Positions 4,712 to 39,064 of a stretch of DNA of 42,444 nucleotides are shown in pieces. Numbering within the stretch: position 1 is the stretch's first letter; each line of letters begins with the position of its first letter. The notes under the pieces were generated by a model that saw only the letters and a list, made by a program, of their open reading frames with translations, did not search any database and was not told the DNA's origin. The translations under genes and the position numbers were made by a program. Source of the DNA: a virus. The stretch lies in the IMG/VR virus record IMGVR_UViG_3300028602_000031; one strand, 5' to 3'.

Positions 4712-5419
4712 TTATTTTTCCACCAACCTGAAACCCCATGATGTTAATTGTCTCTTAATGTCCCTTACTTCATCATCTGAGAAAGCCAATCCTTGATAGT
4801 GTTTCATCGAAGTAAGAGCATCATGCCCTTGTCGAATGCAACAGGTTGATTCTGTTATACCTCCTGCAATCATCCATGATTCAATAGTTTTCCTTGTGGT
4901 CTTTGCTGAGACTCCATAAGGACTTATACCTGCATCTACAGACCATCTCTGAAGATTCTTGTTCCATGTAGATTCTAACGGAGGTTTCTTATCCATCCAG
5001 AAGGCGTTTAAGACCTCTCCAAACATAGACGGTAGTGGATGTATAGTCCTTTCAACTTGTTTCCTCTTGTGCTTTCTCTGAGCTTCCTCTGGAAGGTGAA
5101 TTAAGTTCTTCTTCTCGTTGTACCATTCTTTGTTTTCGTAGAGTCGTAACATCTCAATATACCGCATTCCTGTTACAAGCAGTATGTCAAGGACTCTCTT
5201 GTGGCGTTTCATAGGGATAACGTCTTTGAATACTTCATATTCTTTTACAGTGAAGATTCGGATATCCTTCACATAGAGATGAAGGGAATCCATATCTTTT
5301 GTGAAAGAAGATTTTGGATATTTAGGAGTGTAAACTTTAGGTTGTGTTGCTCTTGCTTTCCGCTTTCGGAACCTTTCCAGGCATTTTTGTTCTTCTGTGG
5401 TTAAGTCTGGTTTTGTCAA
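4712..5419 (-). CDS. int: Tyrosine recombinase/integrase (short, essentially catalytic domain only; KxxR variant)
   Basis: Motifs in order: LVTGMRY (Arg I), SAKTTRK (KxxR in place of HxxR), RQGH, MKHY (catalytic Tyr). Confidence 0.8.
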   Translation of the reverse strand: MTKPDLTTEEQKCLERFRKRKARATQPKVYTPKYPKSSFTKDMDSLHLYVKDIRIFTVKEYEVFKDVIPMKRHKRVLDILLVTGMRYIEMLRLYENKEWYNEKKNLIHLPEEAQRKHKRKQVERTIHPLPSMFGEVLNAFWMDKKPPLESTWNKNLQRWSVDAGISPYGVSAKTTRKTIESWMIAGGITESTCCIRQGHDALTSMKHYQGLAFSDDEVRDIKRQLTSWGFRLVEK

Positions 5420-7159: not shown

Positions 7160-7330
7160 CTGAAAGAGGAAGGATAGTGACTACTCCCATCACTGAAGTG
7201 ACGGGCATCTTCCGATTTTACGGTCAGATTGTAATCCCAATCTGAGAATATTAATTGAAGCATTAAGATCACGGTCAATAGACAGACCACAGAAAGGACA
7301 GTTATGAGTTCTTTCTGATAGGTCTTTTTC
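7160..7330 (-). ncRNA. Predicted TnpB omega/reRNA (scaffold overlapping the tnpB 3' end, plus flank-derived guide TATCCTTCCTCTTTCAG)
   Basis: Known architecture of IS200/IS605 right ends; 5' boundary is a guess. Confidence 0.55.
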
Positions 7331-8411
7331 TACCAACATCCCACAACTTGAACACATTTTTGAGGTATTCTTAGGATCAACAAGAACCACTTTTCTACCA
7401 GCATTTTCAGCTTTGTAGGAAGTATAAGTTACAAGTTTACTCCAAGCTGCATCAAGAATGTGCTTTGCAAGATTGTGATTTTTTGTCATGTTCTTAATGT
7501 TAAGATCTTCAAAACAGATTATACCGTAATTATTAATGAGTTCTTTACTGAATTTTTGAGTAAAATCTTCTCTCTTGTTAGCAATCCTTTCATAGGCTCT
7601 ACACAACGTTTTAAGGCATTTCTGTCTTTCAGGAGTACCTTTTTCGGCTTTAGAAAGTTTTCTGTTAGCTCTTGCAAGTGCCTTTTCTTCTTGAATATAG
7701 AATCTAGGATTGGGAACATAAGTTCCATTCGATAATGTAGCAAAGGAGAGGATTCCAACATCAATACCTACTGACTTATCAGAAGGTTGAAGTGGTTGAT
7801 AAGTTTCAGCATCAGTAAGTATTGAAACAAACCATTTACCAGTTGAAGTTTTCCTGATAGTTAAGCGTTTAATATTTCCTTCAAGTGGTCTATGCAATTT
7901 TATTTTTATATCTCCGATTTTGGAGAGAGTTAACATATTGCTATTTAAGGAAAAACCAGATTGCAAGTAGGTAATACTGTCATACCAACCTTTACCTTTA
8001 AAACGGGGGTATCCTGCTTTTTCTCCGGCTTTAACTCTACGGAAAAAAGCTTGAAAAGCAAGATCAACGCGCATAGTCACATCTTGAAGTGTATGAGAAT
8101 GAACGGTTTTCAATTCTGGTTTATCTTTCTTCCAGATAGGAATCATCTTTTTAGAATCATAATAACTGATTCTTTTCTGTTCAGATTCCCATGCATTCTT
8201 TCTTAGTGCTAGAGTTTCATTATAGACCCATCTACAGAGTTCCAAAGTAGAGTTAAGCTTTGTAACTTGTGATTTTGTTGGATAGATTCTATAACGATTC
8301 ACTTTAGGCATAATAAATAATATAGTCATTTTACCTAAATAAAGGTTACTATATTGAAGTTGACGGCTGTATCCCGCCATTAAAATGACGGGGATTAGCC
8401 TTAGACGCTAC
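7177..8411 (-). mobile_element. IS200/IS605-family non-autonomous element (tnpB only)
   Basis: Right end with hairpin CCCATCAC-TGAA-GTGACGGG (7186-7205), ending ...GTAGTCAC on the minus strand; imperfect left-end hairpin 8371-8395; no tnpA; left boundary approximate. Confidence 0.85.
7190..8311 (-). CDS. tnpB: RNA-guided endonuclease TnpB
   Basis: N-terminal YRIYPTKSQ HTH; RuvC I GIDVG, RuvC II FEDL, CSSC...CPFC zinc finger, RuvC III DRDLNA all intact; start re-called to ATG 8311. Confidence 0.95.
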   Translation of the reverse strand: MPKVNRYRIYPTKSQVTKLNSTLELCRWVYNETLALRKNAWESEQKRISYYDSKKMIPIWKKDKPELKTVHSHTLQDVTMRVDLAFQAFFRRVKAGEKAGYPRFKGKGWYDSITYLQSGFSLNSNMLTLSKIGDIKIKLHRPLEGNIKRLTIRKTSTGKWFVSILTDAETYQPLQPSDKSVGIDVGILSFATLSNGTYVPNPRFYIQEEKALARANRKLSKAEKGTPERQKCLKTLCRAYERIANKREDFTQKFSKELINNYGIICFEDLNIKNMTKNHNLAKHILDAAWSKLVTYTSYKAENAGRKVVLVDPKNTSKMCSSCGMLVEKDLSERTHNCPFCGLSIDRDLNASINILRLGLQSDRKIGRCPSLQ

Positions 8412-8415
8412 TAAA

Positions 8416-9135
8416 TTATTCCGAACTCTCTTTCTCGTTAATCCCTATCCACTTAACTAACTAACATTCATCATGCAATCCAAACCACTGTGGATAAACA
8501 GTATTCGCATCTTCAAGGTAATCGAGAACTTCTATCCCGTTAAAAAAATCATCACTTGCAGTACAACCACCGCTTCCTTCTCCAATATACAAGATCTTTC
8601 CTTCCGGATTCAATTCTGTGAAAAGTTCCGCAGCTTCCCTAGCCATCGGAGATTCGTACATTGCCCAACATGTAAGCAGAAAATCGGCTTTGTATTTACG
8701 AATAGCACCCCTGAAATCAAGGTTTTCAACTGGATAATATGATTTCCAATGAAAACTATCTTTTTTATGCCATGAATAATCATCCGTTGATATTATATTG
8801 ACTCCAGCTTCATGGAGGTACTTTGCTACAAGTCCTGTACCGGCTCCTACTTCAAGAACTGTTTTATCTCCGATGACTTGTTTCATTGCTCTAGCCCATT
8901 CTAAAGTAGGAGTCACAAAACCAATAACGGATCTTGCAACACTGAAATATGAGAAAGCGTCCCGACGCCTAAGTAATTTTGTATCCACACTCTCAACAAG
9001 CCTTTCATTAAGATGGAAATATAGGAATGATTTAATTTCGTTAGAATTTGCCTCGAATGAATTATATGTATGTGGATATGTATGTGAATATCCATCGAAC
9101 TGATCCCATGCTTTTTTAATTTCAGTAAAGGTCAT
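8416..9135 (-). CDS. Class I SAM-dependent methyltransferase with a probable in-frame amber (TAG 8461-8463) read-through
   Basis: VLEVGAGTG motif I, TDDYSW, YIGEGSGGCTA; past the TAG the frame continues LVKWIGINEKESSE to TAA 8416-8418. Confidence 0.7.
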
Positions 9136-9137
9136 CC

Positions 9138-9593
9138 TTATTCGCCCCGCTTTACCCATTTGTCTTTCTTCCAATCAAAATGATGTTTTGTATCCATCAA
9201 GAATTCTAACCACAAACATTCCATGCTCTTGTTTTTGTACCATTTATAACCTCTCTCTTTTACATATGCAGTGAACTCTATCAGTATAAAAACATTCGAA
9301 GAATCACTTTCTTTTCGTATGGCGAGAGATTGAAGTTGTTTTTGATTTGGAAGAGGTCGCAACGTTTCTAAATTCTCTAAATAGGTATAACCAACTTCTC
9401 CAATGAATTTGGCGTGTATTATTCTGGGGTCACTCCATACATCAAACTCAACTACCATCAGTTCTTTTTCCCTTTTTAGAGAGAATGCTTTATCTCCAGC
9501 TTTCCATTCCCAATTTTCAAAGAAATTAGATGGGAGTGCGAGGATCATCTTTTTATAAAGTTCGTTCATAAAAATCACCAATTTGTTTCCCAA
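9138..9593 (-). CDS. Hypothetical protein
   Basis: 151 aa ORF in the operon; LRPLPNQKQLQ...CLWLEFLM pattern. Confidence 0.6.
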   Translation of the reverse strand: MGNKLVIFMNELYKKMILALPSNFFENWEWKAGDKAFSLKREKELMVVEFDVWSDPRIIHAKFIGEVGYTYLENLETLRPLPNQKQLQSLAIRKESDSSNVFILIEFTAYVKERGYKWYKNKSMECLWLEFLMDTKHHFDWKKDKWVKRGE

Positions 9594-17117: not shown

Positions 17118-17452
17118 TGGACGCAAAAGAGCAACATGCGTTTCTCACGAAAGAACAAGTGCGGGAAACGGAGAAGATTCAGGCATATGCGGATGAAAAA
17201 TTCGGAGAAGGAAAATACAAAGTTTTTCCTGCAAACCTGTTTAAAAAAGAAGTTGATCATTTCGCAGAGAATGTTCTGGAGTATGTAATAGATAGAGCGT
17301 CCAATGATAGTGAAATGAAGCACCAGAGAGTTCTTGGAGAAAAGGGATGCCTCTATAGATTGGAAATACTGGACGATCTAAGCAATCATAAAATATGGGA
17401 TCGTGCGGAGAAACAGGCAAGGAAAATCAAGAGGGAGAATGCACACTCTTAA
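17117..17452 (+). CDS. Hypothetical protein
   Basis: Start re-called to ATG 17117 (TGATG overlap). Confidence 0.6.
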   Translation: MDAKEQHAFLTKEQVRETEKIQAYADEKFGEGKYKVFPANLFKKEVDHFAENVLEYVIDRASNDSEMKHQRVLGEKGCLYRLEILDDLSNHKIWDRAEKQARKIKRENAHS

Positions 17453-17711
17453 ATCACTTCAGGAAATGGCTCTCGAAATGGCTACGATTAGAGGCTTTTC
17501 TAAGGACTCCCTTAAAGACAAATGCCTTGTCCTGATGGAAGAGGTAGGAGAAATTGCAAGAGCTATTCTGAGAGGGCGAGGCGATCCTAGAAAGGAAATT
17601 GTTGACGTTCTCGCAGTCTGTCTACTTATTGCTTATTTGTTAGGCATGGACGGTGATGAACTTGAAAAAGAGTTCATTGAAAAAGTTGAAAACGATAAAC
17701 TGAGGGTTTAA
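17439..17711 (+). CDS. mazG: MazG-like nucleotide pyrophosphohydrolase
   Basis: LMEEVGEIARAI...EIVDVL (ExxE...ExxD) all-alpha NTP-PPase motif. Confidence 0.8.
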   Translation: MHTLKSLQEMALEMATIRGFSKDSLKDKCLVLMEEVGEIARAILRGRGDPRKEIVDVLAVCLLIAYLLGMDGDELEKEFIEKVENDKLRV

Positions 17712-17712
17712 A

Positions 17713-17880
17713 ATGGTAGACAAATCAATTTTTTACGCCACTGTAAATAATGTCCCACCGGAACTGGAAGAACAAACCAATGACCTAGATAAATTAATTG
17801 ACGAATGCAGAAAATACATGAAAGAATGGGGAGTATCCTCCGGAACACTGCTATCAGATCTTGATTTAATATTGGAGTAA
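17713..17880 (+). CDS. Hypothetical protein (not in ORF track)
   Basis: 55 aa MVDKSIFYATVNNVPPELEE...; exactly fills the gap between mazG and the FTR gene. Confidence 0.55.
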   Translation: MVDKSIFYATVNNVPPELEEQTNDLDKLIDECRKYMKEWGVSSGTLLSDLDLILE

Positions 17881-17884
17881 TAAT

Positions 17885-18127
17885 ATGCCAGCGTTTGAAA
17901 AAACAACGGACTTGTATGATTATTTTCGGAGAAACGCCGTAAAGCTTGGGTGTAATCCCTGCTTTGACGACAAGATAGAAGAAATCGAGGAGATGAATAA
18001 AAAAGGAGAAGACGGAGAACCTGGGTGTCTCTGCACAGTTGTTTATGTCCCATGTCCCTGCCCAAAGGGGAAGAAGGACATCGTCGAACATGGAATATGT
18101 CACTGCGAGATTTTCAAGAAGGTGTGA
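17885..18127 (+). CDS. Ferredoxin:thioredoxin reductase catalytic-subunit-like protein
   Basis: CLC...CPC...CHC triad corresponding to the FTR CPC/CPC/CHC signature. Confidence 0.7.
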   Translation: MPAFEKTTDLYDYFRRNAVKLGCNPCFDDKIEEIEEMNKKGEDGEPGCLCTVVYVPCPCPKGKKDIVEHGICHCEIFKKV

Positions 18128-18131
18128 GAGA

Positions 18132-18863
18132 ATGAAAGTGATTTACGAACCGAAAGGCAGAGCAAAAGAGTACGCGGATCTCGCGGTAAACCTCTATAAC
18201 GGGTGTTCTCATGGATGTGAGTACTGCTATGCTCCTGCTGCAACAAGAAAGAACAGAGAAGATTTCTATAAGAACCCTGCCGCAAGAAAAGATCTGATCA
18301 GTAAACTGCTAGACGATCTTAAAGAAATGGAACCTACAATGGACGACAGAGAAATTCTAATGAGTTTTTCCTGTGATCCTTATCAGGTGTTGGATTTGTA
18401 TAAAGGAACGGCTAGACAAGCAATTGAGTGTTTTGTAGCATATAATAAGAAGTTCTCAATCTTGACAAAGGGAGGTAAACGCTCAGAAAGGGATTTTGAC
18501 CTGTTAGCTGAACATTCCGATCTTTGCCGGTATGGAGCTACCCTTGTATTCTGCAACGATGAATACTCTAAACAGTATGAGCCGAATGCTGCACCGACTT
18601 CTGAAAGAATAGAGAGCTTAAGGAAAGCTCATGAGCTTGGGATCAGAACATGGGTTTCGTTAGAACCTGCTTGGAGTTATGCAGATGTCCACGACTTGAT
18701 AATTAGGACTGCGGAATTTGTAGACGAATACAGGATTGGAATACTGAATTATCATCCACATGCAAAAGAAATTGATTGGAAATTGTTTAAGGAAGAAGTT
18801 GTGGAATTGTGCGAGTCCTTGAATGTAAATTACAAGTTGAAGAGAGATCTGGAAGTGTTGTAA
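18132..18863 (+). CDS. Radical SAM protein (spore-photoproduct-lyase-like family)
   Basis: GCSHGCEYCYA (CxxxCxxC), CDPYQ, ILTK, SLEP motifs; ATG 18132. Confidence 0.85.
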   Translation: MKVIYEPKGRAKEYADLAVNLYNGCSHGCEYCYAPAATRKNREDFYKNPAARKDLISKLLDDLKEMEPTMDDREILMSFSCDPYQVLDLYKGTARQAIECFVAYNKKFSILTKGGKRSERDFDLLAEHSDLCRYGATLVFCNDEYSKQYEPNAAPTSERIESLRKAHELGIRTWVSLEPAWSYADVHDLIIRTAEFVDEYRIGILNYHPHAKEIDWKLFKEEVVELCESLNVNYKLKRDLEVL

Positions 18864-19598: not shown

Positions 19599-20129
19599 AT
19601 GAATATAATTTCAATAGAAGGACCAGACAGACTCGGAAAAACAACAATCTCAAAACTTTTAGCAGAAAGGTTAGGATACACCTACATTAAATTCCCTAAT
19701 GAAGATTATTACAGTGGGAAAATAATAAGACAAATTCTGAAGAGAGAATTACCTTTTGAACCTGCTTCTTTTCAAGCTCTCCAGATCCTAAATCGATTCG
19801 AAACATTTGAACATTTAGATCCTGACGGTGACTACATTTTTGACAGATATAAGCTCTCAGGCATCGTTTACGGACTTGCAGACGGGCTTCCTGAAGAATG
19901 GATAAGGGAAACTTGTAATTATCTTCCAGATGCGGATTATACAATTGTTCTGTATGGAATTCCTTACGGAGAGGATGACGATATTTACAGCGCAAAGCAG
20001 ATTGAAATTGCCTGGTTGTATTGTGAGGAAATTATAACATGGCAGTACCCTTCCGTCTACGTGAACGGGCAGACTGTAGAAGAATTGTATGCTGAAATCG
20101 TAGCTAAATTACCGGAGGAGTTTCTGTAA
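19599..20129 (+). CDS. tmk: Thymidylate-kinase-family dNMP kinase
   Basis: P-loop IEGPDRLGKTT, NRFE, FDRY motifs. Confidence 0.85.
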   Translation: MNIISIEGPDRLGKTTISKLLAERLGYTYIKFPNEDYYSGKIIRQILKRELPFEPASFQALQILNRFETFEHLDPDGDYIFDRYKLSGIVYGLADGLPEEWIRETCNYLPDADYTIVLYGIPYGEDDDIYSAKQIEIAWLYCEEIITWQYPSVYVNGQTVEELYAEIVAKLPEEFL

Positions 20130-20785
20130 TGCCTGTACCAGTAATGCCAAGGGTTCTGTATTGTAAATCAATTGTAGAAGCCACTTACAAATCTGTAAAT
20201 CTTATAATGAATGAAGGGAAAATCGGAAAAGACGAAAGAGGAGACAAAGTAAAATATTACAAACATCTGATAATTGTAATTCCTGTAGACGGTTGCACTG
20301 ACTCGGACGATAAATTAACTTCTCTGTGTGACGCTGCATTTGCTGAAAACCTTATTACAGGCAAACCATCGGGTTCCGGAATCCAGGCGCATGAATATAC
20401 ATACGGAGAAGAACTCCACTCTGACAACGGGTTAGAAAAGACGATTGACAAGTTGAAAGAGCATCCCGAAACAAGACGCGCTGTGATCCCCCTCTTCAAA
20501 ACAAAACATATCGACGGAAAAGAAGTTCCGTGTATGATAACAGTCGTTTTTGATATCGAATCTGATGAGGACGATGACTATCTGAACATTACTATTTTTG
20601 GAAGATCTAACGAGATGGCAATAGCCACGAAAAGCGATATTAAAGGATATGCGGAACTCGCTAAATATGTAGCAAGGAGACTCGGAATTAAAAACGGTAC
20701 TCTTTTACTCCATGATGTAAATGCCCATTGTAGAATAGGTTCTGATATAGATACGATAAAACGTATTCTCAGGGAGGGGTATTAA
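20129..20785 (+). CDS. Thymidylate synthase (ThyA)-fold protein, probably dCMP-directed (hydroxy)methylase
   Basis: YTYG, TRRAV, EVPC (Cys135), RSNE (Arg159) and His200 present; Asp170 at the position of E. coli ThyA Asn177. Confidence 0.8.
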   Translation: MPVPVMPRVLYCKSIVEATYKSVNLIMNEGKIGKDERGDKVKYYKHLIIVIPVDGCTDSDDKLTSLCDAAFAENLITGKPSGSGIQAHEYTYGEELHSDNGLEKTIDKLKEHPETRRAVIPLFKTKHIDGKEVPCMITVVFDIESDEDDDYLNITIFGRSNEMAIATKSDIKGYAELAKYVARRLGIKNGTLLLHDVNAHCRIGSDIDTIKRILREGY

Positions 20786-38065: not shown

Positions 38066-38134
38066 AATAGTTAACTATAAATAGAATAAGGTATTAATTA
38101 AAGAATAACAAAATAAAGGAGATGAAAAGAAATG
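38065..38134 (+). repeat. Repeated promoter/leader G
   Basis: Copy of F directly upstream of ardC. Confidence 0.8.
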
Positions 38135-39064
38135 AGCAATAAAGTATATGATATAATAACTGAGCGGATTATTTCACAGTTAGAAGCGGGTGTTATCCCT
38201 TGGAGGAAACCTTGGGGAATTGCTGGAAATGGTGAAATGCCTAAAAATGGAATAACTGGCAGACATTATTCAGGAATAAACCTATTAATGTTAAATTGGG
38301 GGGAAGAATATTTCACTTTCAAACAGATACAGGAAAAGAAATGGACTATAAAAAAAGGTTCAAAGGCTTCTATTGTGATCTTTTTCTCTATGCTGGAAAA
38401 GCCAAACAAAAACAATTCTGAAGAAATTGATCAGATACCTCTAATGAGATACTATAATGTTTTTGCTGGCTCAGATATTGAGGGATACAAAGAAGGGGAA
38501 AAATACGAACACAATACCATAGAAGAAGCTGAAGAAATTGTCCGGAAATATCAGGAAGTACCTATACACCATCACAATAATAATAGAGCTTTTTACAGTC
38601 CTACGGAGGATTATATTAATGTTCCTGACTTGTCATGTTTCCCAATCGCTGAAGAGTATTACAGTACTCTTTTTCATGAAATGACTCACAGTACAGGACA
38701 CCACTCTCGATTAAAGAGATTTACCGGAAATGCTGCTAATGCTTCCTTTGGTTCTAAATCCTATTCTTTTGAGGAATTGATAGCCGAACTTGGGGCATCT
38801 TTCCTTTGTGGTGTCTGTGGAATTGAACAGAAAACCCTGGATAATTCAGCTTCCTATATCGCATCCTGGCTAAAAGTTCTTAAGGAAGATAATAAATTTA
38901 TTGTTCGCGCCGCCGCGAGAGCTCAGAAAGCAGTAGATTACATTCAAGAAGGTTCTACTGTTCATAAAAATAAAATCCAGAATGCAAATAAACCTAATGA
39001 TACCAAGCCCAGATCTAAAAAAACCCCTCATTTTAATAAAAGCGGGGAGTGGATAGGAAATTAA
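38132..39064 (+). CDS. ardC: ArdC-family antirestriction ssDNA-binding protein (DUF1738 plus zincin domain)
   Basis: PWRKPW, YSGINLLML, FKQI, YYNVF, AFYSP..D.I..P, HEMTHSTGH, YSFEELIAELG, SASYIASW. Confidence 0.9.
   Translation: MSNKVYDIITERIISQLEAGVIPWRKPWGIAGNGEMPKNGITGRHYSGINLLMLNWGEEYFTFKQIQEKKWTIKKGSKASIVIFFSMLEKPNKNNSEEIDQIPLMRYYNVFAGSDIEGYKEGEKYEHNTIEEAEEIVRKYQEVPIHHHNNNRAFYSPTEDYINVPDLSCFPIAEEYYSTLFHEMTHSTGHHSRLKRFTGNAANASFGSKSYSFEELIAELGASFLCGVCGIEQKTLDNSASYIASWLKVLKEDNKFIVRAAARAQKAVDYIQEGSTVHKNKIQNANKPNDTKPRSKKTPHFNKSGEWIGN

Follow-up and report, generated by a model that had tools for sequence, protein, structure and literature searches.

It is known that, in thymidylate synthase (TS), the Asn177Asp change confers a preference for dCMP and that an Asp at this position marks T4 gp42, MilA and the RB69/DLP3 enzymes, and cytosine nucleotides are the substrates of the natural Asp enzymes that have been described (PMC13326640; PMC5175136); bacterial phages are already known to modify cytosine at the nucleotide level with TS homologs of the Asp type. 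In T4, the dCMP hydroxymethylase gp42, which keeps Asp169 and the Tyr209 that binds the 3'-OH both in TS and in gp42 (PMC5175136), is accompanied by the gp1 kinase, the gp56 dCTPase and glucosyltransferases. Xanthomonas phage Xp12, which has a 5-methylcytosine genome, needs no glycosyltransferase and harbors its own DNA polymerase and a TS homolog of 289 aa with the small domain, its neighbours being DHFR and dCMP deaminase genes. The 5-hydroxy-dCMP synthases (HY126 AfhB, RB69 gp48 and the CHI14 homolog) combine a compact fold with Asp177, Glu143 and an Asn at position 169, and AfhB-type hydroxylation uses flavin and O2 (PMC13326640). The CMP hydroxymethylase MilA carries the Ala176/Lys133 ribose switch and keeps the Tyr. 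As for Archaea, dTMP synthesis with tetrahydrosarcinapterin has been seen in Methanosarcina thermophila extracts (PMC9931769). A survey of archaeal tailed viruses covers 7-deazaguanine modification as well as ordinary thymidylate genes, with no mention of dCMP or methylcytosine (PMC8651126), and the fully methylated genome of PhiN is known only as an observation, to judge from the passage of PMC4284463 in which it is cited. Neither gene-level, nucleotide-stage pyrimidine modification in archaeal viruses nor a description of the TS clade reported below was found in the literature searched.

The sequence under study, hereafter the window, is the 42-kb (42,444 nucleotides) viral fragment IMGVR_UViG_3300028602_000031, and gene coordinates are window positions; the labels L, P and G denote related loci or contigs, protein clusters and related virus genomes, respectively. 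The features to which the text refers are the following:

17439..18863, plus strand: MazG-like, FTR-like and radical SAM genes, outside the cassette and present in the Asn-type sisters L024/L025
19599..20785, plus strand: two-gene exchangeable cassette, kinase and Asp-type TS (blastn against L024-L026; contig joint and loose end)
19599..20129, plus strand: TMK-family dNMP kinase, 176 aa, first gene of the cassette (PF02223, E 2e-13)
20129..20785, plus strand: Asp-type TS homolog, 218 aa, on the short methanogen ThyA scaffold (PF00303, TIGR03283, AlphaFold model)
20531..20533, plus strand: Cys135, catalytic nucleophile by alignment, E. coli Cys146
20612..20614, plus strand: Glu162, by alignment at the E. 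coli Asp169 position
20636..20638, plus strand: Asp170 (GAT), by alignment at the E. coli Asn177 position, putative cytosine-specifying residue
20726..20734, plus strand: His200-Cys201-Arg202, by alignment E. coli His207-x-Tyr209

The residue alignment, which took in E. coli ThyA (sequence from NC_000913), T4 gp42, the Xp12 enzyme and others, equates D170 with N177, E162 with D169, H200 with H207, R202 with Y209, C135 with C146, R116/R117 with R126/R127 and R159/S160 with R166/S167, the codons of Arg159-Ser160-Asn161-Glu162 beginning at 20603. The initial annotation had set Asp170 at Asn177 and His200 at His207, and had read a Glu at the Asp169 position and an Arg (HCR) at that of Tyr209; all these placements are borne out by the alignment, and the gapless motif alignment on which they were based was recovered by HMMER, which places the motif without gaps on the L. 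casei N229D mutant. The residues for catalysis and phosphate binding (Cys135, Arg116, Arg117, Arg159, Ser160, Tyr92 and His200) are intact. The protein belongs to the TS/dNMP C5-transferase superfamily (PF00303 profile, 48.4 bits against a cut-off of 24.3, E 9e-13), and its AlphaFold model is a confident TS fold (pLDDT 87.9) that superposes on TS chains with Z about 18 and an rmsd of 2.5-2.8 over about 200 aligned residues; no solved structure was found for this enzyme class.

The best NCBIfam match is TIGR03283, the methanogen-type ThyA, with 98.6 bits, under the cut-off of 174.55 that is passed by the Asn-type P0039 (237.7) and by PhiF1 (187.1). With Methanosphaera cuniculi ThyA and Methanobacterium virus PhiF1 ORF59 (the best phage-database match, at 30%), the window TS has in common the scaffold of ~210 aa, the acidic residue at position 143, the phosphate arginines and the catalytic Cys; it differs from methanogen-type enzymes in the replacement of Asn177 by Asp, of Tyr209 by Arg (His-Cys-Arg in the place of the His-x-Tyr of TIGR03283), of Asp169 by Glu and of an invariant Tyr by Phe, and in that its clade occurs, as far as seen, in viral contexts only. 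The initial annotation also held that archaeal ThyA proteins keep the Asn. This holds for the methanogen-type enzymes, since both Asn and Tyr are retained in M. cuniculi ThyA (P0053, a named cellular enzyme) and in PhiF1 ORF59; in these two stand-ins for the enzyme of the actual host, the proposed search for a shared Asp in host ThyA proteins thus gave a negative answer.

The close relatives of the window TS form 24 clusters at 59-80% identity. Among 51 distinct core sequences, drawn from all the proteins and loci gathered, Asp and Arg are each present in 51/51 and Glu in 49/51. Rough counting against six relatives gave a dN of 0.20-0.29 with saturated synonymous sites, which indicates that the gene is under purifying selection. 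In a 163-row tree (quick IQ-TREE run), 30 rows form an all-Asp clade with an SH-aLRT of 99; Tyr209 is lost in all 30 and replaced by Arg, Ile or Lys, and the Glu at position 169 is a trait of a sub-clade, many deeper members having Asp. A Tyr that is invariant in 38 Asn-type archaeal ThyA (a comparison set picked for having Asn) gives way to Phe in every Asp sub-alignment, at a frequency of at least 90%; in the alignment, this coupled change and Asp169Glu sit near the cofactor site. The enzymes of T4 (gp42), Xp12 and CHI14 fall outside the Asp clade, gp42 being a long branch and the deep forks weak. The phylogenetic check that had been suggested therefore yielded a separate, well-supported all-Asp clade, with an origin independent of the gp42/Xp12 enzymes that is only likely; the clade is, as judged from its sequences, built on the methanogen ThyA scaffold. 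The archaeal-type ThyA include a second Asp group, apart from this clade and made up of P0049, P0059, P0099 and P0144, which keeps Tyr209, has His at 143 and includes two members of about 410 aa. The matches in L053-L055 are weak (27-29%), and the translated L054 and L055 are unrelated Asn enzymes.

The assertion that Asp at the Asn177 position confers dCMP preference agrees with the two studies cited at the outset, and the alignment places an Asp there also in the Xp12 enzyme. Part of the proposal that the gene encodes a dCMP methyl- or hydroxymethyltransferase can be kept, as dCMP is the likely substrate; methyl and hydroxymethyl transfer are not separable from the sequence, because the acidic residue at the E. 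coli Leu143 position (Glu132 in the window TS), considered as a hydroxymethylase marker and discarded as not diagnostic on this scaffold, is also Glu or Asp in 26/38 of the ordinary Asn-type archaeal ThyA. The further suggestion that the Tyr209-to-Arg change might alter sugar recognition is weakened: the ribose signature of MilA/BcmA (Ala for Ser167, Lys for Arg126) is absent, Ser160 and Arg116 being retained, and the presence of Arg, Ile or Lys in the clade makes the change look like the loss of a Tyr rather than the gain of a new sugar contact. The window TS shares with gp42 the Asp at 177, the acidic 143 and a kinase partner, with the Xp12 enzyme the same Asp, and with MilA the Asp and the TS fold (Z 19); unlike gp42, it has Glu162 and Arg202 in the place of Asp169 and Tyr209 and lies in a different clade of the tree, and its size and setting are not those of the Xp12 enzyme. 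It would, then, work like the gp42/Xp12 enzymes, yet it departs from their Asp169/Tyr209 and falls short of TIGR03283. On these grounds the window TS is predicted to be an active enzyme, a viral offshoot of methanogen-type ThyA that would act on dCMP. Cys135 would add to C6 of dCMP, the N3-H/4-amino side of the cytosine would be bound by Asp170, and C5 would receive a methylene carried by the C1 cofactor of the host (probably tetrahydrosarcinapterin/methanopterin, by analogy with the M. thermophila extracts), giving 5-methyl-dCMP or 5-hydroxymethyl-dCMP.

The stop of the kinase gene overlaps the start of the TS gene, and the two genes are exchanged together. In the sister strains L024, L025 and L026, which were obtained as neighbourhoods of the gene upstream of the cassette, both flanks are 91-95% identical to the window; blastn similarity ends at 19602 and picks up again at 20770, and in place of the kinase and the Asp TS there are a 90-aa gene and a 258-aa TS gene, which begin at the same ATG and finish in the same last 12 bases as the window cassette; this precise allele swap is thus seen in three assemblies from two run series. 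Other contigs reveal the same exchange, with a joint at 19602-20773 in run X1 (where a strain departs at 19602 and rejoins at 20773) and a loose end at 19602 in X3. A third allele, made up of the 73%-identical P0004 cluster and the same kinase, probably occupies the same slot. A search of viral contigs for the cassette junction, the upstream gene and the Asn clade gave no matches.

The 258-aa protein is likewise a TS homolog; it retains Asn177, Asp169 and His-x-Tyr, belongs in the tree to a long-branch clade among the archaeal Asn enzymes and is only 23% identical to the window TS over 111 profile columns. In its family (L024:9657-10433, 14 clusters), there is an insertion of roughly 30 aa, position 143 is Asp and the Arg126 position is occupied by Thr; the enzyme may act as a dUMP hydroxymethylase. 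The 90-aa protein bears a weak likeness to DUF6378 (E 0.003) and to Nmad1/DUF1599 (E 0.05), so that an Nmad1-like identity is only a lead; no relative of solved structure was found for it. The partners of the two TS types are mixed. The kinase adjoins, or lies within two genes of, the Asp TS in the window, L002, L006, L034, L037, L039 and the P0030 contig, and many Asp TS loci have no kinase nearby; the Nmad1-like gene accompanies an Asp TS in L028, L032, L036 and L038 and an Asn TS in L024, and in L045 the gene beside the Asn-type TS is a kinase of the same family as that of the window (56-59% identical), which weakens kinase adjacency as a proof of a non-canonical product. Whether the TS is of the Asp or the Asn type, its gene is followed in most related loci by a conserved gene without any Pfam match, which by eye resembles an ERCC4-type nuclease (L005:10851-11651 and homologs); what the window has near its TS gene, in place of this one, is a RecU/Hjc gene. 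The MazG-like, FTR-like and radical SAM genes lie outside the module since they are retained in both cassette states. The MazG-like and radical SAM genes had been considered as members of a T4-like pathway operon and were rejected as not linked to the cassette; the radical SAM homolog of G002 is about 14 kb from the TS. In the same region, a Cys-rich protein of 80 aa (17885-18127, plus strand) gave a weak FeThRed_B match (E 0.025), and its relatives are found near the TS gene in L003, L029, L032 and L039.

The window encodes tail-like, Prim-Pol, recombinase, resolvase and helicase proteins, and in the relatives the TS gene lies in viral contexts (terminase, portal/head, MCM and RecT nearby), the longer contigs being viral. 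G002 is a complete relative genome of 73,429 bp, which ends in direct repeats and encodes one TS homolog only. Disaggregatase-related domains, which we take to point to Methanosarcina, occur in G002 and L045; the top-ranked plasmid match of the window TnpB is in Methanomethylovorans, at 46% only; and DNA nearly identical to the window was met in runs from bioreactors, landfill, digesters, sludge, wastewater and freshwater, largely anaerobic habitats, no RNA run being listed among them. From these three observations we infer a Methanosarcina-like methanogen as the host, and the virus probably infects methane-making archaea. A scan of genome contigs matched nothing but one virus-like contig, binned in a Bacteroides MAG; mis-binning probably explains why relatives are labelled Bacteroides, Parabacteroides or Prevotella.

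As for the fate of the product, the best reading is a partial incorporation of modified cytosine (5mC/5hmC) into viral DNA, which is put forward tentatively, as it stops somewhat short of being probable. The cassette kinase would phosphorylate the modified dCMP, host enzymes would make the triphosphate, and the host polymerase would draw on it, in competition with dCTP, when copying viral DNA; C would be substituted in part, which would blunt restriction by the host, and the cassettes of the Asp and Asn types would be alternative alleles of one pyrimidine-modification slot. This reading is favoured because the viral Asp enzymes characterised in the literature surveyed feed DNA modification, because the host already has a ThyA, and because the swapping of such dissimilar alleles seems typical of conflict-driven loci. 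The dCMP preference conferred by Asn177Asp, the viral contexts, the kinase partner, the precise swap, and an Asp that is constant in the relatives and in a well-supported clade with coupled Tyr209 loss and Tyr-to-Phe change are all in line with it. Against it stands the persistent avoidance of palindromes made of G and C: GGCC is seen 2 times in the window against 36 expected and 52 against 105 in G002, and L021, a virus with an Asp/Ile enzyme, has no GGCC, GGNCC, CCNGG or GATC (9, 12, 14 and 50 expected) and no CGCG, whereas Xp12 does not avoid GGCC (501 against 523). The presence of the same kinase family with an Asn-type TS, the many Asp loci without a kinase and the C5 DNA methylase found near the Asp enzyme in L020 also count against partial incorporation, and the swap with an Asn enzyme would equally well fit two enzymes doing the same job. 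The avoidance in the window, where GGNCC and CTAG are avoided too, more weakly than GGCC, points to a host GGCC restriction system and could date from the Asn state, an excuse that is weaker for the other genomes.

Any modification of the whole genome that may have been implied is weakened by the same avoidance and by the missing pathway genes, and a full cytosine replacement is unlikely since polymerase, glycosyltransferase and deaminase genes were not found in addition to it. Among the top 25 families listed for the 78 ORFs of G002, most of which have no family, there is no polymerase, glycosyltransferase, MazG/pyrophosphatase or deaminase, nor does the dCTPase of T4 find a counterpart there; none of dCTPase, polymerase, glycosyltransferase and deaminase/DHFR is among the families listed for 46 further ORFs of the window, which is itself a fragment, and no kinase match was obtained for G003, which is 70% complete and encodes an Asp TS. 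A complete replacement of the T4/Xp12 type, with the upstream MazG-like gene as dCTPase, could be read from the co-orientation of MazG-like, kinase and Asp TS genes, and a fully cytosine-methylated archaeal virus does exist (halovirus PhiN, as cited in PMC4284463); it is nonetheless highly improbable, as the MazG-like and radical SAM genes stay in place when the cassette is swapped and free exchange between strains 91-95% identical implies no co-adapted replication machinery. A flavin- and O2-dependent dCMP hydroxylation as in HY126 AfhB or RB69 gp48 would account for the top structural match of the model, which is AfhB (Z 21.3, rmsd 2.8, 201 aligned), and for the shared Asp177 and Glu143. Structural closeness to AfhB and MilA was rejected as functional evidence, however, when an ordinary Methanosphaera ThyA, used as a control, also ranked both first and matched AfhB better (Z 25.2, rmsd 1.9, 199 aligned); with a Glu in the window TS at the position of the diagnostic Asp169Asn (Asn in the CHI14 homolog), and largely anaerobic habitats for a reaction that needs O2, such an activity is exceedingly improbable.

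The exchange of the two alleles bears also on explanations in which the DNA is left unmodified. If dCMP were methylated and a host deaminase turned 5-methyl-dCMP (or its triphosphate) into dTMP/dTTP, the kinase would be a TMK and both cassettes would supply dTTP, in agreement with the interchange of Asp and Asn enzymes in one slot, with the kinase family and the Nmad1-like partner that both types share, with the Asn-Arg-x-Glu motif of eukaryotic TMKs retained by the window kinase, and with the persisting C-site avoidance. In Xp12, a dCMP deaminase gene lies next to that of the Asp TS and, in a control, M. acetivorans was found to have a PF00383 deaminase-family gene over the cut-off, even though PF00383 also covers other deaminases. 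This detour is considered unlikely, given that the complete G002 has no viral deaminase, that there is no clear gain over the host's own ThyA and that the viral Asp enzymes characterised so far in the literature surveyed feed DNA modification (PMC13326640). A direct synthesis of dTMP, with Asp170, Glu162 and Arg202 re-tuning the pocket to read uracil, would suit an enzyme that is allelic with an Asn TS, adjoins a TMK and is the sole TS of a complete genome, and the second Asp group among archaeal-type ThyA could be seen in the same light. Asn-to-Asp TS mutants do retain some dUMP activity. Such a plain dUMP methylase is, however, rather improbable: no natural Asp-type one was found in the literature surveyed, the Asp is fixed across a deep clade when host-type enzymes keep Asn, and the score is far under the TIGR03283 cut-off. 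Lastly, the loss of the 3'-OH-binding Tyr209 throughout the clade, the gain of Arg, and the Asp169Glu and Tyr-to-Phe changes near the cofactor site might indicate CMP, dCDP or dCTP as the substrate, or a Cys-C6 adduct used beyond one-carbon transfer. This is very improbable in view of the absence of the MilA ribose determinants, of the lack of a single new contact conserved at a position that may be Arg, Ile or Lys, of the 5/38 Asn-type enzymes that are also without the Tyr, and of a monophosphate kinase partner, which argues for a monophosphate product.

Both the exchange of Asp and Asn alleles and the comparison of site avoidance emerged from the present analysis. The broader scenario, in which viruses of methanogens independently made an archaeal ThyA into a dCMP (hydroxy)methylase dependent on a modified pterin and alternate, at one hypervariable slot, between Asp cassettes that modify cytosine and Asn cassettes that modify uracil, is possible and, taken as a whole, doubtful. 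If it is true, archaeal viruses would provide a case, at the level of genes, of pyrimidines modified at the nucleotide stage, in the form of a partial, swappable anti-restriction coat relying on the host polymerase. Should a dCMP enzyme on a methanogen ThyA scaffold be confirmed, the strategy of the bacterial phages would extend to Archaea, with a probably independent origin, and the enzyme would offer a handle on a class with little biochemistry (PMC9931769); the detour through thymidylate, if true, would represent an unusual route to thymine. The Asp/Asn allele pair in nearly identical viruses constitutes a natural, ready-made controlled experiment.

Some other genes of these viruses can be mentioned. 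The window contains an ArdC-like anti-restriction protein (38132-39064, plus strand), an IS605 TnpB (7190-8380, minus strand), an integrase-family protein (4712-5419, minus strand) and a methyltransferase-fold protein (8461-9174, minus strand). In L020:7926-11083, ParB_N, QueC-like, C5 DNA methylase and methyltransferase genes share the contig with the Asp TS, and in L021:8157-14318 there are 18 tRNA genes and an HNH gene after the Asp/Ile-type TS. A five-gene run in G002 (44339-47543, corresponding to L018:6339-9543) looks like a type IV-B CRISPR-Cas module, and the scan of the whole G002 genome lists one RAMP and one PAPS-reductase match.
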